In this document: in pieces, positions 18,235 to 25,170 of the stretch
Layout: each line of letters starts with the position of its first letter
How positions within the stretch are numbered: position 1 is the stretch's first letter
Origin: a virus
Virus record (IMG/VR): IMGVR_UViG_3300045988_101759
Location: 1-39,327 of that record
Reading direction: 5' to 3' (one strand)
DNA length: 39,327 nucleotides
Notes under the pieces: model-generated
What the model was told of the DNA's origin: nothing
Databases searched by the model: none
The model's input: only the letters and a program-made list of their open reading frames with translations
Translations under genes and position numbers: made by a program

Positions 18235-19449
18235 TCATTCGGTGTATATCTCGCCGTTGCTGGCAAGCCAGCGGCGATACGAGTTCTCGGCCTTCGCCAG
18301 CACGTCAGGCGTGACCGGTTTGCCGGGCTGGTAGGGATTGTGGCCGTCCAATGCGGCCTCGTAGCGGAGCCGCGCATTGAGCAGACGCTTCTGCGCCGCG
18401 GTCAGCTCCTCATGCCGTCCCTGGCGGTAGCTGTTGTTGTGGAGCCATTGCCGGCGCCGGAGTTCCGGCACTTGCTCGCGCCATTTGTCGGGCAGGATGT
18501 ATCCCTCGCGCTTCAGAAGTTCGATGGTCTGCTCGCGCGGGAGGTTGAAGCTGTAGATGCCTTCCGGCGTGAGCCTGCGCCGCTGGTGTTGGCCATATTC
18601 GTATTTGCGGATCATGCGGCTCCACCCGTAACGGCTGGTGCCTTCGGACGTGGCCATGCCGATGTTGCCGCGTCCGACCGGCCGCATGCCTCGATGCGCG
18701 TTGACGACCTGGTAGATGTCGGCGCCGTCTCTGATTGCCTGCGCGTCGGCATGTCCGAAGACCTTGTCCTGCTCCTCTTCGCTCATGTTGTTGAAGCGGT
18801 CCATCGGTGATGTGATCCAGCCTTGTTTCTCGGCCTTGTCCTTGCCTTTGCAGGGGATGGTGCGACCGTGGCATTTCGGATGACGAAGGAAGTCGTTGTT
18901 GTGCCGGAAGTATTTTCCGGCGAGGATGGCGCATCGTGGGCAACAGTCGGGTGATTCGACGCGCACGTAGCCGACGCCGGAACGCTGGGTGATGCTGACG
19001 CCCATCGCGCTGATTGACGTGTCCTCGATGGCCTGCATGGCCATCTGGCGAAGCGTAGCACGACCTGCCATCATGGCATCGGATTCACCCATGCCTGACT
19101 TGATGGCCGACAAAGTGCGCGTCACCGGGATATCGAAATATGATTCGAGGTCGATGCCGCTCGGTGCGAAACCCGTCCCGAAGGCGAGGGGATTCGCAAT
19201 ACCGTCAGGGCGCACGTAGTCGCCCTGTTCGGCGAGCATCAACGTGGACGAGTCCATCGCGTCGCTCGCGGCGCGGGTCTGCAGTGTGGCGAAGAGCGTT
19301 AGGAAATCGGCGTTTGTCCGATTCCAGCTGTCACGCACCCGTCGCGGATCCACGCCCTTCCATGTTTTGTCCGCCGCCTTCACGGCCAGCAGGCAGAGTC
19401 GGGCCAGTGTGTTGCGGCTGTCCGACAGGCTCTCCAGCGTCACCGTCAT
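18235..19449 (-). CDS. MuF-like minor capsid / head morphogenesis protein
   Basis: PDCCPRCAILAGKYF...HPKCHGRTIP resembles the Phage_Mu_F motif. ATG at 19449 lies 8 nt after GGAGG. Confidence 0.8.
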   Translation of the reverse strand: MTVTLESLSDSRNTLARLCLLAVKAADKTWKGVDPRRVRDSWNRTNADFLTLFATLQTRAASDAMDSSTLMLAEQGDYVRPDGIANPLAFGTGFAPSGIDLESYFDIPVTRTLSAIKSGMGESDAMMAGRATLRQMAMQAIEDTSISAMGVSITQRSGVGYVRVESPDCCPRCAILAGKYFRHNNDFLRHPKCHGRTIPCKGKDKAEKQGWITSPMDRFNNMSEEEQDKVFGHADAQAIRDGADIYQVVNAHRGMRPVGRGNIGMATSEGTSRYGWSRMIRKYEYGQHQRRRLTPEGIYSFNLPREQTIELLKREGYILPDKWREQVPELRRRQWLHNNSYRQGRHEELTAAQKRLLNARLRYEAALDGHNPYQPGKPVTPDVLAKAENSYRRWLASNGEIYTE

Positions 19450-20851
19450 CAGATGCACCTCCGACCTGCAGGCTGCGGGCTATCTCCGCCATCTCCGGAT
19501 CGTGATTCTCGTCGTCCACCATGCGCATGATGCGCTTGATGTCCTCCGGACTCTGACCCATCTGCTCGGCGATCCACTGCAATGGATAGCCGAGCTTCTT
19601 GTATTTGAGCATCGCGTCGGCCATCAAGGCCTCGGACCGGTATTGCGGTGTGGCGAACACGACTTTTGAATCCTCGAGGATGCGGGCGGATTCCTCGTCG
19701 TCCTCGAGCGTCATGGCCATCTCGCACAATTCGCGCACCGGCTGACGCATGAAGCTGATACGCTCCAAGGTCTTCGACACGAGTCCGGCTTCCGCGACCT
19801 CGTAGCCGGTGGCCGGCACCTCGGCGTTCGTCAGCAGATAATGGCCAGGAGTGCGGGTCTCTGCCGCGATGTGCTCGACGGCTTTTTGGATGATCGGCAG
19901 GAACGCCTGCAGGTTGCTGGCGGTCCATTCGCCGATCGACACGTTGTCGCCGGTGATCTGCATGATGCGCTCCATGACCTGCTTGTCGAGATTCACGGGA
20001 CGCTCTCCGACCTGCTCGCCGGTTGCCTTGTCGAACACCGGCTCGGACAGCGAATCGCCGCCGAGAATGACCCTGGCGGGCATGGACGCGAAATCCAAAG
20101 CATTCAAGGTGTATGCCCAGCAGACGTTGACGGCGTCCTGCATCGATTCGACCTGCTCCACATCGCTGATAGGCAGGTCATCCAGGAGCATCTGATTGCG
20201 GAATTCGACCAATGGCACGCGTCCGAGCGGGTTCGCGCGCGCCGAATCCGGAACGAACCGCCAACCCTCAACGCCCGGTGGAAGACGATTCCTCTCATCG
20301 TCGCCGCCTGCACGCACACGAACCACGTCGAACACCATGTCCGGCAGCAGCAAAGTGCCGAATTCATGCTCCTCGTCGTATCTGACCAGGAGTCCTGCGT
20401 CGACCTCTCCGGTGAGCGGGTCGTAGTGTACGGCCGCGCTGTCCGGGTGTTCGAAGCTGATGCGCGCTCTGCCGTCCGGCATCGACGTGACCAAGCCGAA
20501 AGCGCGTCCGGTCGTGGTCATCATCAGCGCGCTCTCCTGCAGCTTGCGGTCGCAGTCGTTCCGTTCCCACACGCGCATCACATGCGAGTCCAATTCGTGA
20601 TCGTCATATGGGATGAAGCCCTTGAAGTGGATGCGTTCGACAGGCGCCTGCGCCACAGGCAGACACCAGTTGTCGGCGAAGCCGGAAAACCTATCCGCCA
20701 TGTAGCGTTTGAATTCGTCGGATGCGAATTTCAGGGTGCCGCGCTTGCCGCGCACGTAATCCGTGTGCTTCCTGATGTCCGGCCGACGGTTCTCGATCTT
20801 CAGGGCGAGCAGGTTCGCCATGCAATTCACGTCATCGGCGGTACGAATCAT
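19331..20851 (-). CDS. Portal protein
   Basis: 506 aa, immediately after the terminase gene. The last 119 nt overlap the MuF gene out of frame. Confidence 0.88.
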   Translation of the reverse strand: MIRTADDVNCMANLLALKIENRRPDIRKHTDYVRGKRGTLKFASDEFKRYMADRFSGFADNWCLPVAQAPVERIHFKGFIPYDDHELDSHVMRVWERNDCDRKLQESALMMTTTGRAFGLVTSMPDGRARISFEHPDSAAVHYDPLTGEVDAGLLVRYDEEHEFGTLLLPDMVFDVVRVRAGGDDERNRLPPGVEGWRFVPDSARANPLGRVPLVEFRNQMLLDDLPISDVEQVESMQDAVNVCWAYTLNALDFASMPARVILGGDSLSEPVFDKATGEQVGERPVNLDKQVMERIMQITGDNVSIGEWTASNLQAFLPIIQKAVEHIAAETRTPGHYLLTNAEVPATGYEVAEAGLVSKTLERISFMRQPVRELCEMAMTLEDDEESARILEDSKVVFATPQYRSEALMADAMLKYKKLGYPLQWIAEQMGQSPEDIKRIMRMVDDENHDPEMAEIARSLQVGGASDDGDAGEPVGQPQHTGPTLPAGREGGGQNMEGRGSATGA

Positions 20852-21504
20852 TAGAACCCCCTAGTGGTAGAACCAGTCAGCAGGTACGCCTTGCGTTTCC
20901 TGCCCCAACCGGCGGCGCGTGCATCACATGCCGCCTCATGCGCCAGCACGCACGTCACCGCCGCATCGATTTTCCGCGTCTGCTTCGGCTTGCCCAACCC
21001 GTAGCGTTCGCCGGATTTGGCGAAGCGTCTTGCGTTGCGCATGTGCGTGATGGTGATCGGACACCCGTCCTGTGTGATCGCGTGATGCTGCAGGTCGGAT
21101 TCGAAGCGTTTCAATGCCTCCCATACGGCGGTGATGCGGCTCGAACCGCTCATCGCCCAGGGAATGAACTTCTTCGGGCCGTATCTCGTGTCCCACGCCT
21201 CGATCTGCGATTCCCACGACACCTCGTCGCGGAAACCCGGATCGCAATAGGCGCGGATTATCCGGTATCGGTCGTTGAGCTCGTCCATGGCGGCATTGAC
21301 CTCGCTGCGCGGGATGCGTCCGCCCCACGTCTTCGGATTCCAGATCGTCGGACGACGATCCGCGCCATAGCGCGGAGTGAAGATGAAGCCCTCACGGGTT
21401 TCCGCCTTGATGCATGTCCAGTCGTCGTTCTCGGAGCCGTCGAAGCCGAGGCACACCTCTGTGCCTTTCGGCGGGTTCTCAAGCCAAAGCTCATGCTCGG
21501 ACAT
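20851..21504 (-). CDS. terL: Terminase large subunit, C-terminal nuclease piece
   Basis: 217 aa. Acidic motifs of the RNaseH-like nuclease fold: CLGFDGSENDDW, AYCDPGF, KIDAAVTCVLAHEAA. It has its own ATG 1 nt after the upstream stop. Confidence 0.85.
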   Translation of the reverse strand: MSEHELWLENPPKGTEVCLGFDGSENDDWTCIKAETREGFIFTPRYGADRRPTIWNPKTWGGRIPRSEVNAAMDELNDRYRIIRAYCDPGFRDEVSWESQIEAWDTRYGPKKFIPWAMSGSSRITAVWEALKRFESDLQHHAITQDGCPITITHMRNARRFAKSGERYGLGKPKQTRKIDAAVTCVLAHEAACDARAAGWGRKRKAYLLTGSTTRGF

Positions 21505-21505
21505 G

Positions 21506-21961
21506 CTAGTATCCCATGTTCCTCAAGACCGATTTCGACAAACTCTTCTGCGAGCGCTGGTAGTTCTGGTTTGTGATCTCCCTTGTCGTCGCTTCGCCGA
21601 AGGAATTGACGAATGCGCGGCTTGTGCCGCTTGATTTTGGTTGGCGTCGGATCTGTTCGTCGGAGATTCTGTCGCGCTGTGCTCTGGCGGTGTGGAATGC
21701 CTTGGAAGCCGCTTGGTATTTGTCGTAGTTCGCCTTGGTTGCCTCCGGGAACACGCTTTCCGGCATGCGCTGGTTGTATTGCGTGGCTCCGTGCGCGGTT
21801 CTCTGCATGATTTCCGATGCGGCGTCCATGCGGCTTCCCGCATCGCGCATCATCTTGGTGAGATCCGAGTCGCTTACGGATGAGAGGTCGGTGGCAGAGC
21901 CTCCCCCTCCGCCGCCATGTCCGCCACGGCCTGCGCCCGAGCTTGATCCTCTTCCGCCCAT
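21506..21961 (-). CDS. 151-aa protein with Gly-rich N-terminus, unknown (inside the terL insertion)
   Basis: ATG after GAAAGGA. N-terminus MGGRGSSSGAGRGGHGGGGGGS. It overlaps the 3' end of the upstream gene by 88 nt. Confidence 0.55.
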   Translation of the reverse strand: MGGRGSSSGAGRGGHGGGGGGSATDLSSVSDSDLTKMMRDAGSRMDAASEIMQRTAHGATQYNQRMPESVFPEATKANYDKYQAASKAFHTARAQRDRISDEQIRRQPKSSGTSRAFVNSFGEATTREITNQNYQRSQKSLSKSVLRNMGY

Positions 21962-22575
21962 TTTTTCATCCTTTCCACATTGCTGTTTTCGTATGCGACG
22001 ACTTCGGCGCCACCGAAGTCGAAAAACGGAATGGCATCTCCGTAGAGGAGAATCTTTTCCGGTTCAAGCCTGTCGATCGCGTACCGCATGCCGAGCCGCC
22101 AATAGAGCTCTGCCGTCGGATTGTCATTCGCTCCGACAGTGCTTACCGCGACGGTGGAGTTGTTTGGAATGCCTGAAAAGCAGTAAGAGAACGATTCTGG
22201 GCCAGCCCATTGAAGCGTTGGGATGACTTTCAGCCCGCAGGACTGCCAGTATGCTCCGATCAGACGGCTTCGGAAGACGTTATAGATCTTCATCGCTTCC
22301 GGCATGTCCATGTATGTGCTGAAATCAGGCGTCAGCACACACTGGAAGCGTTTGAGCGGTGCGATGTATCTGTCCGGCTGGTTCCAGACTCTCTGGAACT
22401 GGTAGTCATCGATGAAGAAATGGATTCCGCAATGCTTGACTGTCTTTTTGCCGGTCGCGTAATTGAAGCCCATCAACGTGTCAGGGGTGGTGACGTCCTG
22501 TTTTGCAAGCATTGGCATGTCGTATCTGCCAACCGTCCGCACCTTTTGCAGCAGCGGAAGATTGTATTGCCTCAT
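21874..22575 (-). CDS. DUF4417-like protein (inside the terL insertion)
   Basis: IHFFIDDYQFQRVWNQPDRY...LTPDFSTYMDMP...AYWQSCGLKVIPT...AVSTVG matches the DUF4417 pattern as I remember it. The start could instead be at 22584 or 22617. Confidence 0.65.
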   Translation of the reverse strand: MRQYNLPLLQKVRTVGRYDMPMLAKQDVTTPDTLMGFNYATGKKTVKHCGIHFFIDDYQFQRVWNQPDRYIAPLKRFQCVLTPDFSTYMDMPEAMKIYNVFRSRLIGAYWQSCGLKVIPTLQWAGPESFSYCFSGIPNNSTVAVSTVGANDNPTAELYWRLGMRYAIDRLEPEKILLYGDAIPFFDFGGAEVVAYENSNVERMKKWAEEDQARAQAVADMAAEGEALPPTSHP

Positions 22576-22603
22576 CGTCCGCATCCTTGATTTGTTGAGT
22601 GGT

Positions 22604-23722
22604 CTATTGTCCCGCATAGCAGCTCTCCCATAGTCCGTCCTCGAGCCATGCGCCGCCGCCCTGCACCATTCGGTTGCCGAAGAAGCGTTCGGCCTGAGCG
22701 GGGTCCTTATCCATGAGCGCCTCGGCCTCCGCCTCGACGGAGTCCAAAGGCACCCACGGGCTGCCGGCGTAGACCCATTCGAGGATCCTGCGGCGTTCGC
22801 GCCGGTTGTTGAAGCTGTATGGCGTGCCGTCCTTGTGCCGCAGGTCCGGGTTAAGGTCCGGGTTGCGGTAGAAGATCCACACGTCCGATGCCGATGTCTC
22901 GAATTGCTGCTGTGCATAGGAATTTTCGCCGGGGTCGTAGGCGTTGGTCCAGAAGTGCGTTCTGCCGCCCATGCCTGCGGCGCCACGACGCTGCGTATCC
23001 GCCACGTCGAGCATCCCATTGGATTTCGTGTATAAACCGGCCTCGTCCTGTTCGGCGTCCGAGATCGGGTTGCCCAGACGGCTGGTGGCCGAGGCGGTCA
23101 CCACGTCGATGCGGTCGAGGTCGAGATCGTCATCATCCAGATTGATTCCGGGGCGCAGGATTCGGATGAAGCCCTCGCGCACCTTGAGCAGCTGCTTCAA
23201 GGGGCCGAGCCGGATCATCGCGACCAGTGGACGGTAGGCGTTGCGCACCTGGTCCTCGGAATTCGCGGTCAGCTGGATGAGCGGCGACGGGTGACGCATG
23301 CCCTTCGGCTCGCCCGGATTGTAGTGGTAGACCCATCCGCAGGGGCAGCCGTTGTCGGAGCAGCGGTACACGTCACCGGGCTTCGCCCATCCGGCGAACA
23401 CGACTGGGCCGCATGCCTCGAGTATGGCGCATGACGCCTCGGTCGGCCCCTTGCCTGTCTTCTGCGGGGCGATGCAGCCCGTCAGACGATATTGGAAAGC
23501 CTGGTTGAGGACCAGCGGATTATCGACCGTGACCTCCTCGGGCGGGACGAACTCCGCGTCCTCGCGCACACGCCACCTGTGCGCCGCATACCAGAACTGC
23601 CAGTCCGACCAGCAGAAGGGCTTGCCGCGAAGGATGCCGTCGGGCTGGCGCACATGCCGCCGCACCCAGGCGTCCTGCAGGTCGGCGAGGGTCGGGAAGT
23701 CGATGATCCAATCGTCGGCCAT
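22604..23722 (-). CDS. terL: Terminase large subunit, N-terminal ATPase piece
   Basis: 372 aa. Walker-A-like APQKTGKG and a Walker-B-like acidic DEAG motif. It ends in AWLEDGLWESCYAGQ-stop, exactly at the usual ATPase/nuclease linker. Confidence 0.85.
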   Translation of the reverse strand: MADDWIIDFPTLADLQDAWVRRHVRQPDGILRGKPFCWSDWQFWYAAHRWRVREDAEFVPPEEVTVDNPLVLNQAFQYRLTGCIAPQKTGKGPTEASCAILEACGPVVFAGWAKPGDVYRCSDNGCPCGWVYHYNPGEPKGMRHPSPLIQLTANSEDQVRNAYRPLVAMIRLGPLKQLLKVREGFIRILRPGINLDDDDLDLDRIDVVTASATSRLGNPISDAEQDEAGLYTKSNGMLDVADTQRRGAAGMGGRTHFWTNAYDPGENSYAQQQFETSASDVWIFYRNPDLNPDLRHKDGTPYSFNNRRERRRILEWVYAGSPWVPLDSVEAEAEALMDKDPAQAERFFGNRMVQGGGAWLEDGLWESCYAGQ

Positions 23723-23723
23723 G

Positions 23724-24275
23724 TCACGCCCTCAACCGGCGTGGGAACTGGACGATCTTGGTGTCCATGCCGCTCTCCGCGGCCTCCGCGTCCGTGGCGG
23801 GCACCTCGTGGGCGGCCATGTCGACGTTGTCCTCGGAGATCTTCCAGCCGAGCGCCTGTAATCCAGCCTCGGACAGGCCTATCCGGTCCTCGAGCCTGAT
23901 CTTCACGGCCACGTCGGCCGCCTTGGCCGACGGGCTCTCGCACACCACGCATTCGCGGACATACGAGGCGATCTGGTAATGCAGATACTTCAGCTGTGGC
24001 TGTTTCCACGCGCGCGCCTGCGGCAGACGCCACAACTGCCTCCACAGTTCGGCCTCCCGGGCATTCCAGGATTCCGACCCGGCCCTGTCCTCGATCCATT
24101 CCTGCGATTCCTTGTCGAAATCGCGGATCACGTAAGGCGGCAGCGGAAACTTCGGCGGCCGGCCCTTGTATTCCGTGTTCGGCAGACTGCGCAAAGTGTA
24201 TCCCCTGCGTTCGCTCGCACCGCTCGACGGATCCGGCATCGGACCGGATCTGACGCGTTTTCCTCCTCTTGGCAT
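23724..24275 (-). CDS. terS: Terminase small subunit
   Basis: 183 aa from the ATG MPRGGKRVRSGP after GGAGGAGAC. It lies directly upstream of terL. Confidence 0.65.
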   Translation of the reverse strand: MPRGGKRVRSGPMPDPSSGASERRGYTLRSLPNTEYKGRPPKFPLPPYVIRDFDKESQEWIEDRAGSESWNAREAELWRQLWRLPQARAWKQPQLKYLHYQIASYVRECVVCESPSAKAADVAVKIRLEDRIGLSEAGLQALGWKISEDNVDMAAHEVPATDAEAAESGMDTKIVQFPRRLRA

Positions 24276-24619
24276 GTCTCCTCCATCGTCGGACGGCCTC
24301 GCGCCGTTCCTTCGCTGTCGGCGGCCGGGCCTTTCGCCCGCCCCCCTCTGAAACTTTTGAACCCTCCGCACCTCGGAGACAGCTCTCCGGCGGTTCCGCT
24401 ACCCAAACTGTTAGGGGGTATCCCCGTGGGTGTTTTGACGGTTTGCTTCCGTTTGTTTTGCAACGGTTTTTGTTTGACTCGCTTGTTGCTGCGATGAGTC
24501 GCGAATCGAATCGAGAAGACTTGGTCGTTTTCGTCTTTCGTGTCGTTCGACGTGAGCGGCTGGCGTCGTCGGCTTGGCTTCGATGAAATGTTTTGTTTTG
24601 GTGCCGAAGCCTGTGTGTG
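24276..24619 (-). other. Non-coding gap between HNH and terS: candidate cos/packaging site
   Basis: 344 bp with no plausible ORF. It contains repeated ACGGTTT(G/T) motifs and GC-rich blocks. HNH-cos-terS is a typical arrangement. Confidence 0.45.
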
Positions 24620-25015
24620 TCAGCTGAGGTTTTGCCTGTTGTTGAAGCCTGAAGGTTTCGTCCTTGCGGTCTTGCTGTCGTGGCAGCGCTTGCACAGGCC
24701 GCGCATGCGTTGCGGGTCGTTGGGGTCCAAGCCTGCTTCGACGAGCTCGATGCGTTCGATCGGCCAATGGTCGGCTATGGTGCTGGGGGCACCGCATAGG
24801 CCATGGTGCCTTCCGCATCCGTCCGGCCCGTCGCCGGGACAGACGCACCGCGGGTCCCTTGCCAGCACGCGGGCGCGTGCGAGGCGATGCGCTTTCGACG
24901 TGTATGGATTGCGGCCTCGTGTCCGGCGCTTGTCTTTGGCTTTCCTACATTCGTCGCACAGTGAGCCGGAGGAGACCAGGTGTGGGCAACCGGAGGTGGA
25001 GCATACCTTGTACAT
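24620..25015 (-). CDS. HNH endonuclease (terminase-associated)
   Basis: Cys clusters CSTSGCPH...CDEC and DHWPIERIE...LCKRCHDSKT. Confidence 0.85.
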   Translation of the reverse strand: MYKVCSTSGCPHLVSSGSLCDECRKAKDKRRTRGRNPYTSKAHRLARARVLARDPRCVCPGDGPDGCGRHHGLCGAPSTIADHWPIERIELVEAGLDPNDPQRMRGLCKRCHDSKTARTKPSGFNNRQNLS

Positions 25016-25170
25016 CAATCCCCCATCATCACGTAAGCGCGGGATTGGCTTGCCTGCCGCTGTTGGTGTATGCCCACTCTGACGTGGAGTGGGCGGAGCG
25101 TGTCCGATATGCCGTTCGGACAGGACGGGATATAACCCAAGGAGTTAGGAGAATCCATCGGTGGATATGA

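Follow-up and report, generated by a model that had tools for sequence, protein, structure and literature searches.

The locus described here raises the question of whether a phage terminase gene was cut by mobile DNA or had already been divided when that DNA arrived. It lies in the record IMGVR_UViG_3300045988_101759, of which positions 1–39,327 were analysed (39,327 nucleotides, nt; this whole stretch is referred to as the window). The gene for the large terminase subunit (TerL) is present there as two open reading frames (ORFs), one for the ATPase and one for the nuclease, with 1.1 kb of DNA and two further genes between them. An earlier note on the same DNA had favoured a genes-in-pieces terminase that was possibly created by a new kind of selfish cassette. 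The pieces proved to be real and not decayed (ratio of nonsynonymous to synonymous substitution rates, dN/dS, 0.03–0.04), and the intervening 1.1 kb was recognised as mobile foreign DNA from its presence and absence among relatives, its low diversity, and its occurrence at a second site. The part of the proposal that did not stand was the causal one, as the split predates the cassette. The locus thus very probably combines an old two-gene TerL with a young mobile two-gene cassette, which was placed in the overlap of the two ORFs and did not cause the split.

The ATPase ORF (22604–23722, minus strand) encodes 372 amino acids (aa) with the C-terminus ...GGGAWLEDGLWESCYAGQ*, and the nuclease ORF (20851–21504, minus strand) encodes 217 aa with the N-terminus MSEHELWLENPPKGTEVCLGFDGSENDDW. 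They had been described in the earlier note as ATPase-only and nuclease-only parts of TerL, and this was upheld both by PHROG matches and by alignment to intact TerLs. The ATPase piece matched phrog_19179 (3e-172) and the nuclease piece phrog_21277 (2.5e-101), both annotated as terminase large subunit. That the ORFs are halves of one family was confirmed by profile search, in which they matched neighbouring stretches of phrog_9, a full-length TerL family (positions 76–469 and 476–678, respectively). The pieces aligned end to end with intact TerLs of 536–577 aa, and the break was within the linker. The ATPase piece aligned to residues 1–~340 of the intact proteins, with PQKTGKG as Walker A (aligned with GQKLGKS and PQKSGKG) and QDEAG as Walker B (aligned with GDESG and QDETG). 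The nuclease piece aligned to the C-terminal ~200 residues, with the nuclease aspartates in GFDGS, YCDP, and KIDAA.

Judged by sequence, the two ORFs are the ATPase and nuclease halves of one TerL family, and the nuclease piece retains the conserved acidic residues of a predicted RNase H-like nuclease. As Pfam gave no family for either piece, PHROG matches and alignments with annotated TerLs are the basis of this identification. The PDB sequence search returned no match for the ATPase piece and only spurious designed proteins for the nuclease piece. The two domains are not on one polypeptide: a stop codon follows ...CYAGQ, and the nuclease is read in a different frame from an ORF 1.1 kb further downstream.

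To place the split relative to the insert, IMG/VR was scanned with the ATPase piece, and 80 loci were obtained. Among 73 loci with a 97–100% identical ATPase protein, 35 (the window included) were filled, i.e., carried the cassette, and 38 were empty, with adjacent terL ORFs. Nine further, more distant relatives, Gordonia phage Nyceirae included, also had adjacent terL ORFs and no insert. Consecutive overlapping ORFs were thus a feature of the 47 empty alleles only; in the 35 filled ones, the window among them, 1113 nt lie between. All 46 empty Bifidobacterium-phage alleles had an identical ATG-to-TGA ORF overlap of 14 nt (ATGCAGGAGCATGA). They read ...TGC TAT GCA GGA GCA TGA, so the ATPase ends in ...CYAGA*, and the ATG within this stretch (MQEHELWLENPPKG) opens the nuclease ORF in the +1 frame. 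The equivalent overlap in Gordonia phage Nyceirae is 20 nt, with GTG/ATG.

Cassette-free relatives of this clade, down to 59% ATPase identity, all showed the split at one and the same residue. Its position (...AYAG*, restart M..WL[EP]NPP) is common to Bifidobacterium, Actinomyces, Gordonia, Arthrobacter, and gut-phage sequences, and the window follows the same pattern, with an ATPase end after the linker motif ...W..AYAG and a separate nuclease ORF of the form M..WL[EP]NPP..GFDGS. Gordonia and Arthrobacter phages with a split TerL were never seen with the cassette. Plaque-forming phages carry the split (Gordonia phage Nyceirae, Arthrobacter phage BillyTP and relatives), and the halves are annotated there as 'terminase large subunit, ATPase domain' and 'nuclease domain'. 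Two-gene TerL has been called characteristic of most Arthrobacter cluster AY phages (PMC11920828, PMC12820723). The split terminase itself is already annotated and in print; a literature search for a study of split terminases found only genome announcements mentioning the feature and no experimental study in the papers searched.

Intact single-ORF relatives also exist. They occur in a second Bifidobacterium phage lineage, in Microbacterium and Rathayibacter prophages (ATPase part 63–65% identical), and in the phages phiSASD1 (Streptomyces) and AGM16 (Brevibacterium). A search of the whole library with the nuclease piece gave 593 representatives (E ≤0.001), in which free-standing proteins of ~200–215 aa, intact proteins of ~540–575 aa, and many fragments are mixed, a composition insufficient to count independent splits. 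Because cassette-free alleles are already split at the same position, the insertion did not cut terL. On this comparison of alleles, the split is older than the insertion, and the cassette exploited an existing gene boundary.

The boundaries of the cassette (21497–22609, minus strand; 1113 nt, CAATAG...TAGCATGTCCGA) were set by comparing the 35 filled with the 47 empty alleles. It is located inside the former 14-nt overlap, between ATGC(A/G)GGA and GCATGA. Its 5' end gives CAA TAG, by which the ATPase end ...YAGQ replaces ...YAGA and the last codon and stop of the piece are supplied (...WESCYAGQ-TAG). Its 3' end gives ATG TCC GA, by which the nuclease start MSE... replaces MQE...; the start codon and the first two and a half codons of the nuclease ORF (ATGTCCGA) come from the cassette. 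As the cassette brings its own Gln-stop and ATG-Ser, both terL ORFs stay intact. One junction pattern was observed in all 35 filled alleles, with ATG or GTG as the nuclease start codon being the sole variation.

The old start of the nuclease ORF (22615–22629, minus strand), identified from the same junction comparison, consists of GGGAG, seven nt, and the ATG at 22617. It now precedes the cassette, sharing the frame of the first cassette gene, which encodes a DUF4417 protein. The GGGAG is encoded by Trp-Glu codons, and its Shine-Dalgarno-like match was noted by eye. The DUF4417 ORF can start at 22617 (247 aa) or at 22575 (233 aa, after AAGGA; used by gene callers), and the gene is given here from the latter ATG (21874–22575, minus strand; PF14386, 1.5e-64; phrog_8680; C-terminal part of phrog_940). 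The second gene (21506–21961, minus strand) encodes a small Gly-rich protein of 151 aa, which belongs to a conserved small-protein family. These are the two same-strand genes, one DUF4417-like and one Gly-rich, that had been read from the sequence earlier.

The Gly-rich ORF overlaps the DUF4417 3' end by 88 nt (21874–21961, minus strand), so this stretch codes for the end of one protein and the beginning of the other. The dual-coding overlap is taken as real, since both frames are open in the 79%-identical cassette of L084/L087, where indels are multiples of three, and the MGGRG start is nearly invariant. The Gly-rich ORF ends as TAG-C-ATG at the nuclease start, a stop-start arrangement tight enough for the translational coupling that the earlier note suggested for the nuclease piece. 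An alternative-frame ORF of 381 aa was also observed (21874–23019, minus strand), running from inside the ATPase gene into the DUF4417 gene. Some public gene calls of 327–356 aa (P0002, P0004, P0009) appear to be based on it; the ORF is probably an artefact of high GC and makes DUF4417 seem longer than it is.

Several further traits of the insert had been listed in the earlier note, whose observations, as distinct from its causal reading, were right wherever they could be checked. The GC content was indeed lower than in both flanks (0.550 vs 0.647 in the ATPase ORF and 0.615 in the nuclease ORF), and the 12-nt WLED/WLEN blocks at 22637–22648 and 21475–21486 do share 10 of 12 nt. These blocks had been taken as a hint of linker duplication during insertion, a proposal that had to be abandoned: they are not an insertion footprint, because they are present in every empty allele and in deep relatives, being conserved across the split clade. 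No terminal inverted repeats were found at the insert ends, no target-site duplication by direct comparison of filled and empty junctions, and no transposase-like protein among the cassette products by Pfam and PHROGs. A promoter and terminator scan of the coding strand at 21497–22609 gave no consensus match, although the sigma-70 consensus used may not suit Bifidobacterium. No intron was found: Rfam 15 gave 0 matches over 20500–24000 at E up to 1. Pfam showed no Hint/intein domain in the TerL pieces, which abut at the linker without extra residues.

Mobility of the cassette was assessed from its diversity, its linkage to the flanks, and its occurrence elsewhere. In filled genomes, synonymous divergence (dS) was 0.09–0.10 in the cassette vs 0.34–0.41 in the flanking terL pieces, nucleotide diversity was 3.0% vs 6.6% and 7.3%, and diversity at synonymous sites was ~4-fold lower than in the flanks. 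The cassette is much younger than its host haplotypes, since its dS and nucleotide diversity are lower than those of the adjoining terL. Association between flank single-nucleotide polymorphisms and the cassette was high within 25 nt of the left junction (r2 ~0.9; ~0.3 on the right side) and fell to 0.2–0.35 beyond ~50 nt. About half of the near-identical genomes had no cassette within 5 kb.

A second site was found in another Bifidobacterium phage lineage, where the cassette is between the small terminase subunit (TerS) gene and an intact TerL of 539 aa. The DUF4417 protein is 79% and the small ORF 77% identical to those of the window, whereas TerS and TerL of this lineage are only 41–45% identical to the window's. 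Of 80 related loci, 16 were filled (including L113–L118, L143, L145–L148, L150, and L165; junctions at ~L113:2885 and 4001) and ~60 were empty (L112, L120–L142, and others). The exchanged segment at site 2 takes in the diverged ends of TerS and TerL. Frame-disrupted copies of DUF4417 were counted at both sites (6/36 at site 1; 5/16 at site 2, plus L104; ~1 in 6), and in several site-2 copies DUF4417 was broken N-terminally.

The empty junctions read ...GCTGCTATGCAGGAGCATGAGCTTTGG... at site 1 and GAGATGCAGGAGGACAAATGATGGCC at site 2. The 9-mer ATGCAGGAG is found just upstream of the stop codon of the upstream gene at both empty sites (L006:6100–6120; L131:3960–3990), and GGATGCGGA in the DUF4417 start region of the cassette (window 22570–22590) recurs at the 3' end of TerS in some empty alleles of site 2. 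Such sharing, which was observed post hoc, could be recombination microhomology, a recognition motif, or chance.

More distant DUF4417 genes were located between the HNH endonuclease and TerS genes in B. parmae and B. pluvialisilvae prophages, giving three positions for the cassette or DUF4417: HNH-TerS, TerS-TerL, and between the TerL pieces. The pair of DUF4417 and small-protein genes was also present directly upstream of terminase genes in unrelated phages, including those of Streptococcus. Taken together, the genome comparisons indicate that the cassette is foreign, horizontally moving, and dispensable on the evolutionary timescale.

Two contigs were recorded alongside these comparisons. 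The 83.7-kb contig IMGVR_UViG_2877182016_000001 (L073, L139) contains both a window-type and a second-lineage prophage region, each without the cassette; as both are on one contig, the two lineages can share one host genome. In a prophage on a 213-kb contig (L087:4001–6233), the cassette is followed by a 42-aa N-terminal remnant of an intact-type TerL, and this in turn by an HNH gene and another type of terminase. A terL piece appears to have travelled with the cassette into this third kind of phage.

Both TerL halves are under strong purifying selection that is undiminished in the filled genomes. For the ATPase piece, dN/dS was 0.030 in filled and 0.039 in empty genomes, and for the nuclease piece 0.040 and 0.034, respectively; both terL ORFs were open in 35 of 35 filled alleles. 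The halves can also be exchanged separately. In the recombinant L070 (IMGVR_UViG_3300045988_098967; 2700–2790), TerS and the ATPase piece have ~90% nucleotide identity to the window lineage, the switch is within ~70 nt of the overlap of ATPase stop and nuclease start, and the sequence is then 98–100% identical to lineage L083. TerL halves thus reassort as modules, given that the ATPase and the nuclease of L070 come from two different lineages.

For DUF4417, 2263 homologues were detectable, either free-standing (~220 aa) or as fusions to an N-terminal ParB domain (~345 aa), and the protein cluster has 817 members. The DUF4417-ParB fusion is listed in a 2025 preprint as phage-enriched and of unknown function, and the literature search found no function assigned to DUF4417. 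Invariant His, Asp, Asn, and Arg residues are present, which, as a sequence pattern, would be typical of an enzyme. The AlphaFold2 model (predicted local distance difference test score, pLDDT, 92.6) has a barrel-like alpha/beta fold. When it was compared with the PDB by Foldseek, nothing was obtained at E <0.001, and the weak barrel matches were EAL, UVDE, and PdxJ (template modelling score, TM, 0.3–0.4; best EAL-type E 7.6e-3, TM 0.34). Against BFVD, its own homologues were retrieved, followed by phage queuine tRNA-ribosyltransferases (E 3e-3 to 1e-2, TM 0.43–0.47). This likeness to DpdA-like enzymes is a weak lead from a predicted model. DpdA and the ParB-like DpdB form a pair in a 7-deazaguanine DNA modification system, and the barrel likeness and ParB-like fusions of DUF4417 recall this pair, although the link is weak.

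The DUF4417 profile had no match among PDB sequences, and NCBIfam and PADLOC had none for any cassette or terminase protein. The earlier statement that the insert has no obvious endonuclease also held: among the known homing endonuclease families (LAGLIDADG, GIY-YIG, HNH, His-Cys box, PD-(D/E)XK, EDxHD), none was found in the cassette, where PF14386 (DUF4417) was the only match. The dN/dS values were 0.24 for DUF4417 and 0.13 for the small Gly-rich protein. The family of the latter has a nearly invariant MGGRGSxS N-terminus and a FVNSFGEATTREIT...VLRNMGY C-terminus, and its gene is directly downstream of DUF4417 in distant phages as well. Its model has a disordered Gly-rich head, a predicted long helical hairpin, and a short beta-hairpin, with no informative structural match. 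The window protein had no Pfam, NCBIfam, PADLOC, or PHROG match; among 41 homologues compared with PHROGs, four single-member matches (E 6e-4 to 8e-3) pointed to no consistent family.

In the ancestral state proposed here, the nuclease ORF would have begun, in the +1 frame and behind GGGAG, at an ATG located 14 nt ahead of the ATPase stop. The cassette, which encodes a putative DUF4417 enzyme and the MGGRG...VLRNMGY protein, has been inserted into this 14-nt overlap. The resulting four genes, packed by overlaps and TAG-C-ATG, would be co-transcribed and translationally coupled. The ATPase and nuclease subunits would be translated separately and assemble non-covalently, and TerS, and probably the HNH protein, would join them in the working terminase. 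The cassette would have spread mainly by recombination between co-resident or co-infecting phages, with only stop- and start-restoring junctions surviving.

Some points weigh against this reading. The viability of the cassette-bearing phages is judged from sequence features, namely their abundance (35/73 close relatives, many samples), intact ORFs, and purifying selection, and the assembly of two TerL polypeptides is presumed for this and every other split TerL. In cassette-free alleles, a fused TerL may be made at a low level by frameshifting. The low diversity of the cassette and its short linkage fit active homing equally well, and the conserved position of DUF4417 by terminase genes could mean a packaging-related role instead of a neutral passenger.

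The first of these competing ideas is that the cassette is a homing-type selfish element, in which DUF4417, perhaps with the small protein, is a new site-specific endonuclease and the cassette is copied in by repair. Precise presence/absence polymorphism at two sites in two lineages, the youth of the cassette relative to its flanks, and the loss of linkage within ~50 nt, as for short co-conversion tracts, would all suit such an element, as would the invariant enzyme-like residues, the ~1/6 of copies that are frameshifted (as in the invasion-decay cycle of homing genes), and, post hoc, the 9-mer ATGCAGGAG at both empty target sites. Against it, no similarity to a known homing endonuclease family or nuclease fold was seen in Pfam, PHROGs, NCBIfam, or Foldseek against the PDB, and the 'nuclease' label in PHROGs refers to an N-terminal ParB-like part that the window DUF4417 lacks. 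Distant phages, too, have the two genes as an old and widely conserved module heading their packaging operons, which looks like a working accessory function; dN/dS of 0.13–0.24 shows selection on both proteins; and the inclusion of diverged TerS and TerL ends in the site-2 exchange is as in ordinary homologous exchange. We consider recombination between co-resident prophages more likely than homing catalysed by DUF4417, which we regard as possible but unlikely. We are similarly doubtful of the broader idea that the DUF4417 and MGGRG-protein pair is a new class of cassette, self-propagating and aimed at gene boundaries within the packaging operons of phages, with DUF4417 as a DNA-acting enzyme (a novel homing nuclease, or a DpdA-like TIM-barrel base-exchange enzyme or glycosylase). 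On that idea, its insertion into a split terminase would show in nature that a TerL ATPase and nuclease expressed >1 kb apart can form a working motor. Somewhat less probable still is that the two proteins are functional helpers of packaging, or of packaging-linked DNA modification, kept in the operon for co-expression. The recurrence of the pair at three positions, inside the terminase genes or directly ahead of them, in phages of Bifidobacterium and Streptococcus and in others, its tight coupling to the terL ORFs, the frequent fusion of DUF4417 to ParB-like domains, and the weak likeness of its model to DpdA-like barrels (E 3e-3, TM 0.43–0.47) speak for a helper role. The cassette is nevertheless dispensable, being missing from about half of the near-identical genomes; the structural similarity is weak, with the tRNA-ribosyltransferases absent from the top PDB matches; and the literature offers no function for DUF4417.

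The remaining explanations concern the terminase itself. The exact placement of the cassette at the ATPase/nuclease linker and the existence of intact TerLs in related phages would agree with an insertion that cut an intact terL and left the pieces as its consequence, but cassette-free relatives are already split, Gordonia and Arthrobacter phages have the split and no cassette, the cassette is the younger of the two, and the WLE blocks occur in empty alleles, so that we hold this to be very improbable. Hardly any weight is given to removal of the interruption at the RNA or protein level, by a group I or II intron, a split intein, or ribosomal bypass, to yield one full-length TerL. Introns and inteins in terminase genes provide precedents for it; here, however, Rfam gave no match, there is neither an intein domain nor extra residues at the break, and the two proteins encoded by the insert are conserved and subject to purifying selection. 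We also know of no precedent for a ribosomal bypass of 1.1 kb. Decay of a dead prophage is suggested by the origin of the sequences (metagenomes and prophages rather than plaques) and by the broken copies of DUF4417, and is likewise very improbable: the terL halves are open in every filled allele, their dN/dS of 0.03–0.04 at dS 0.34–0.41 equals that of the empty alleles, and the HNH, TerS, and portal neighbours are intact. Related Bifidobacterium prophages are, moreover, inducible (PMC6109161), their split and cassette status not being stated there.

With the old split and the younger, recombining cassette retained as the preferred reading, three aspects are new: TerL halves can stand 1.1 kb apart, with foreign genes in between, in an allele that is abundant and under selection; the DUF4417 and MGGRG-protein genes form a mobile unit that is polymorphic at two sites in gut Bifidobacterium phages; and TerL halves are reassorted as modules. 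Packaging models take TerL as one chain in which ATPase and nuclease communicate via the linker. The cassette allele excludes rejoining by frameshift, yet its halves are conserved as strongly as in cassette-free genomes. An abundant young cassette with two polymorphic sites in human-gut Bifidobacterium phages would be a tractable system for finding the function of DUF4417, a phage-enriched family.

The packaging region of the window is a single minus-strand operon in the order HNH, TerS, the 372-aa ORF, DUF4417, the 151-aa ORF, the 217-aa ORF, and portal. The HNH endonuclease gene at its head (24620–25018, minus strand) matched phrog_589 and phrog_144 ('HNH endonuclease', E ~1e-11) and is syntenic in relatives. 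The TerS gene (23724–24371, minus strand) encodes a protein with 35–41% identity to the proteins annotated as TerS in Arthrobacter phage BillyTP and Gordonia phage Nyceirae, whose genes have the equivalent position. It matched phrog_226, labelled 'minor tail protein', and this label looks wrong because of the position of the gene and its homology to annotated TerS. The portal protein gene (19331–20851, minus strand; PF05133, 2e-11; phrog_104, 1.8e-85) is directly downstream of the nuclease piece. The closest genomic match of the window (99%) was an uncultured Bifidobacterium metagenome-assembled genome, and relatives at 71–74% were prophages in named species of this genus. The window represents a temperate siphophage or prophage of Bifidobacterium. 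For related Bifidobacterium prophages, with phiSASD1 as the closest known relative, induction has been reported, and genome ends in virion DNA were marked by sequencing coverage (PMC6109161); that paper is silent on the terminase split and on whether its prophages carry the cassette.

Among known systems, the terminase gene of Lactobacillus phage LL-H reportedly contains an intron. Inteins are reported in mycobacteriophage TerL (PMC5050341). Such terminases also have a mobile element in the coding region, but they are spliced to one polypeptide; the window differs in having stop and start codons between the halves, no intein domain, and no intron model match. The cassette also resembles morons in its foreign genes of lower GC at a gene boundary, in being dispensable, and in its exchange between lineages. 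Classical morons carry their own promoter and terminator, whereas the cassette had none detected on the coding strand (by a scan that is weak for Bifidobacterium) and is coupled to its neighbours by overlaps.

In Aeromonas phage Aeh1, insertion of a free-standing homing endonuclease is said to have left nrdA split. The two cases are alike in the mobile DNA between halves of an essential enzyme that must reassemble from separate chains and in the presence/absence polymorphism among close relatives. In Aeh1, however, the insertion made the split and the endonuclease is recognisable, whereas in the window the split is older and the insert has no known endonuclease fold. The closest counterparts are the Arthrobacter cluster AY phages and Gordonia phage Nyceirae, which have a TerL of the same family (48–55% identity in both halves), the same break after ...AYAG with a +1-frame restart at M..WL[EP]NPP, and the same order of TerS, ATPase, nuclease, and portal. 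Their ORFs are adjacent and overlapping, whereas those of the window are 1.1 kb apart with two unrelated genes between; joining by ribosomal frameshift is therefore ruled out for the window allele.

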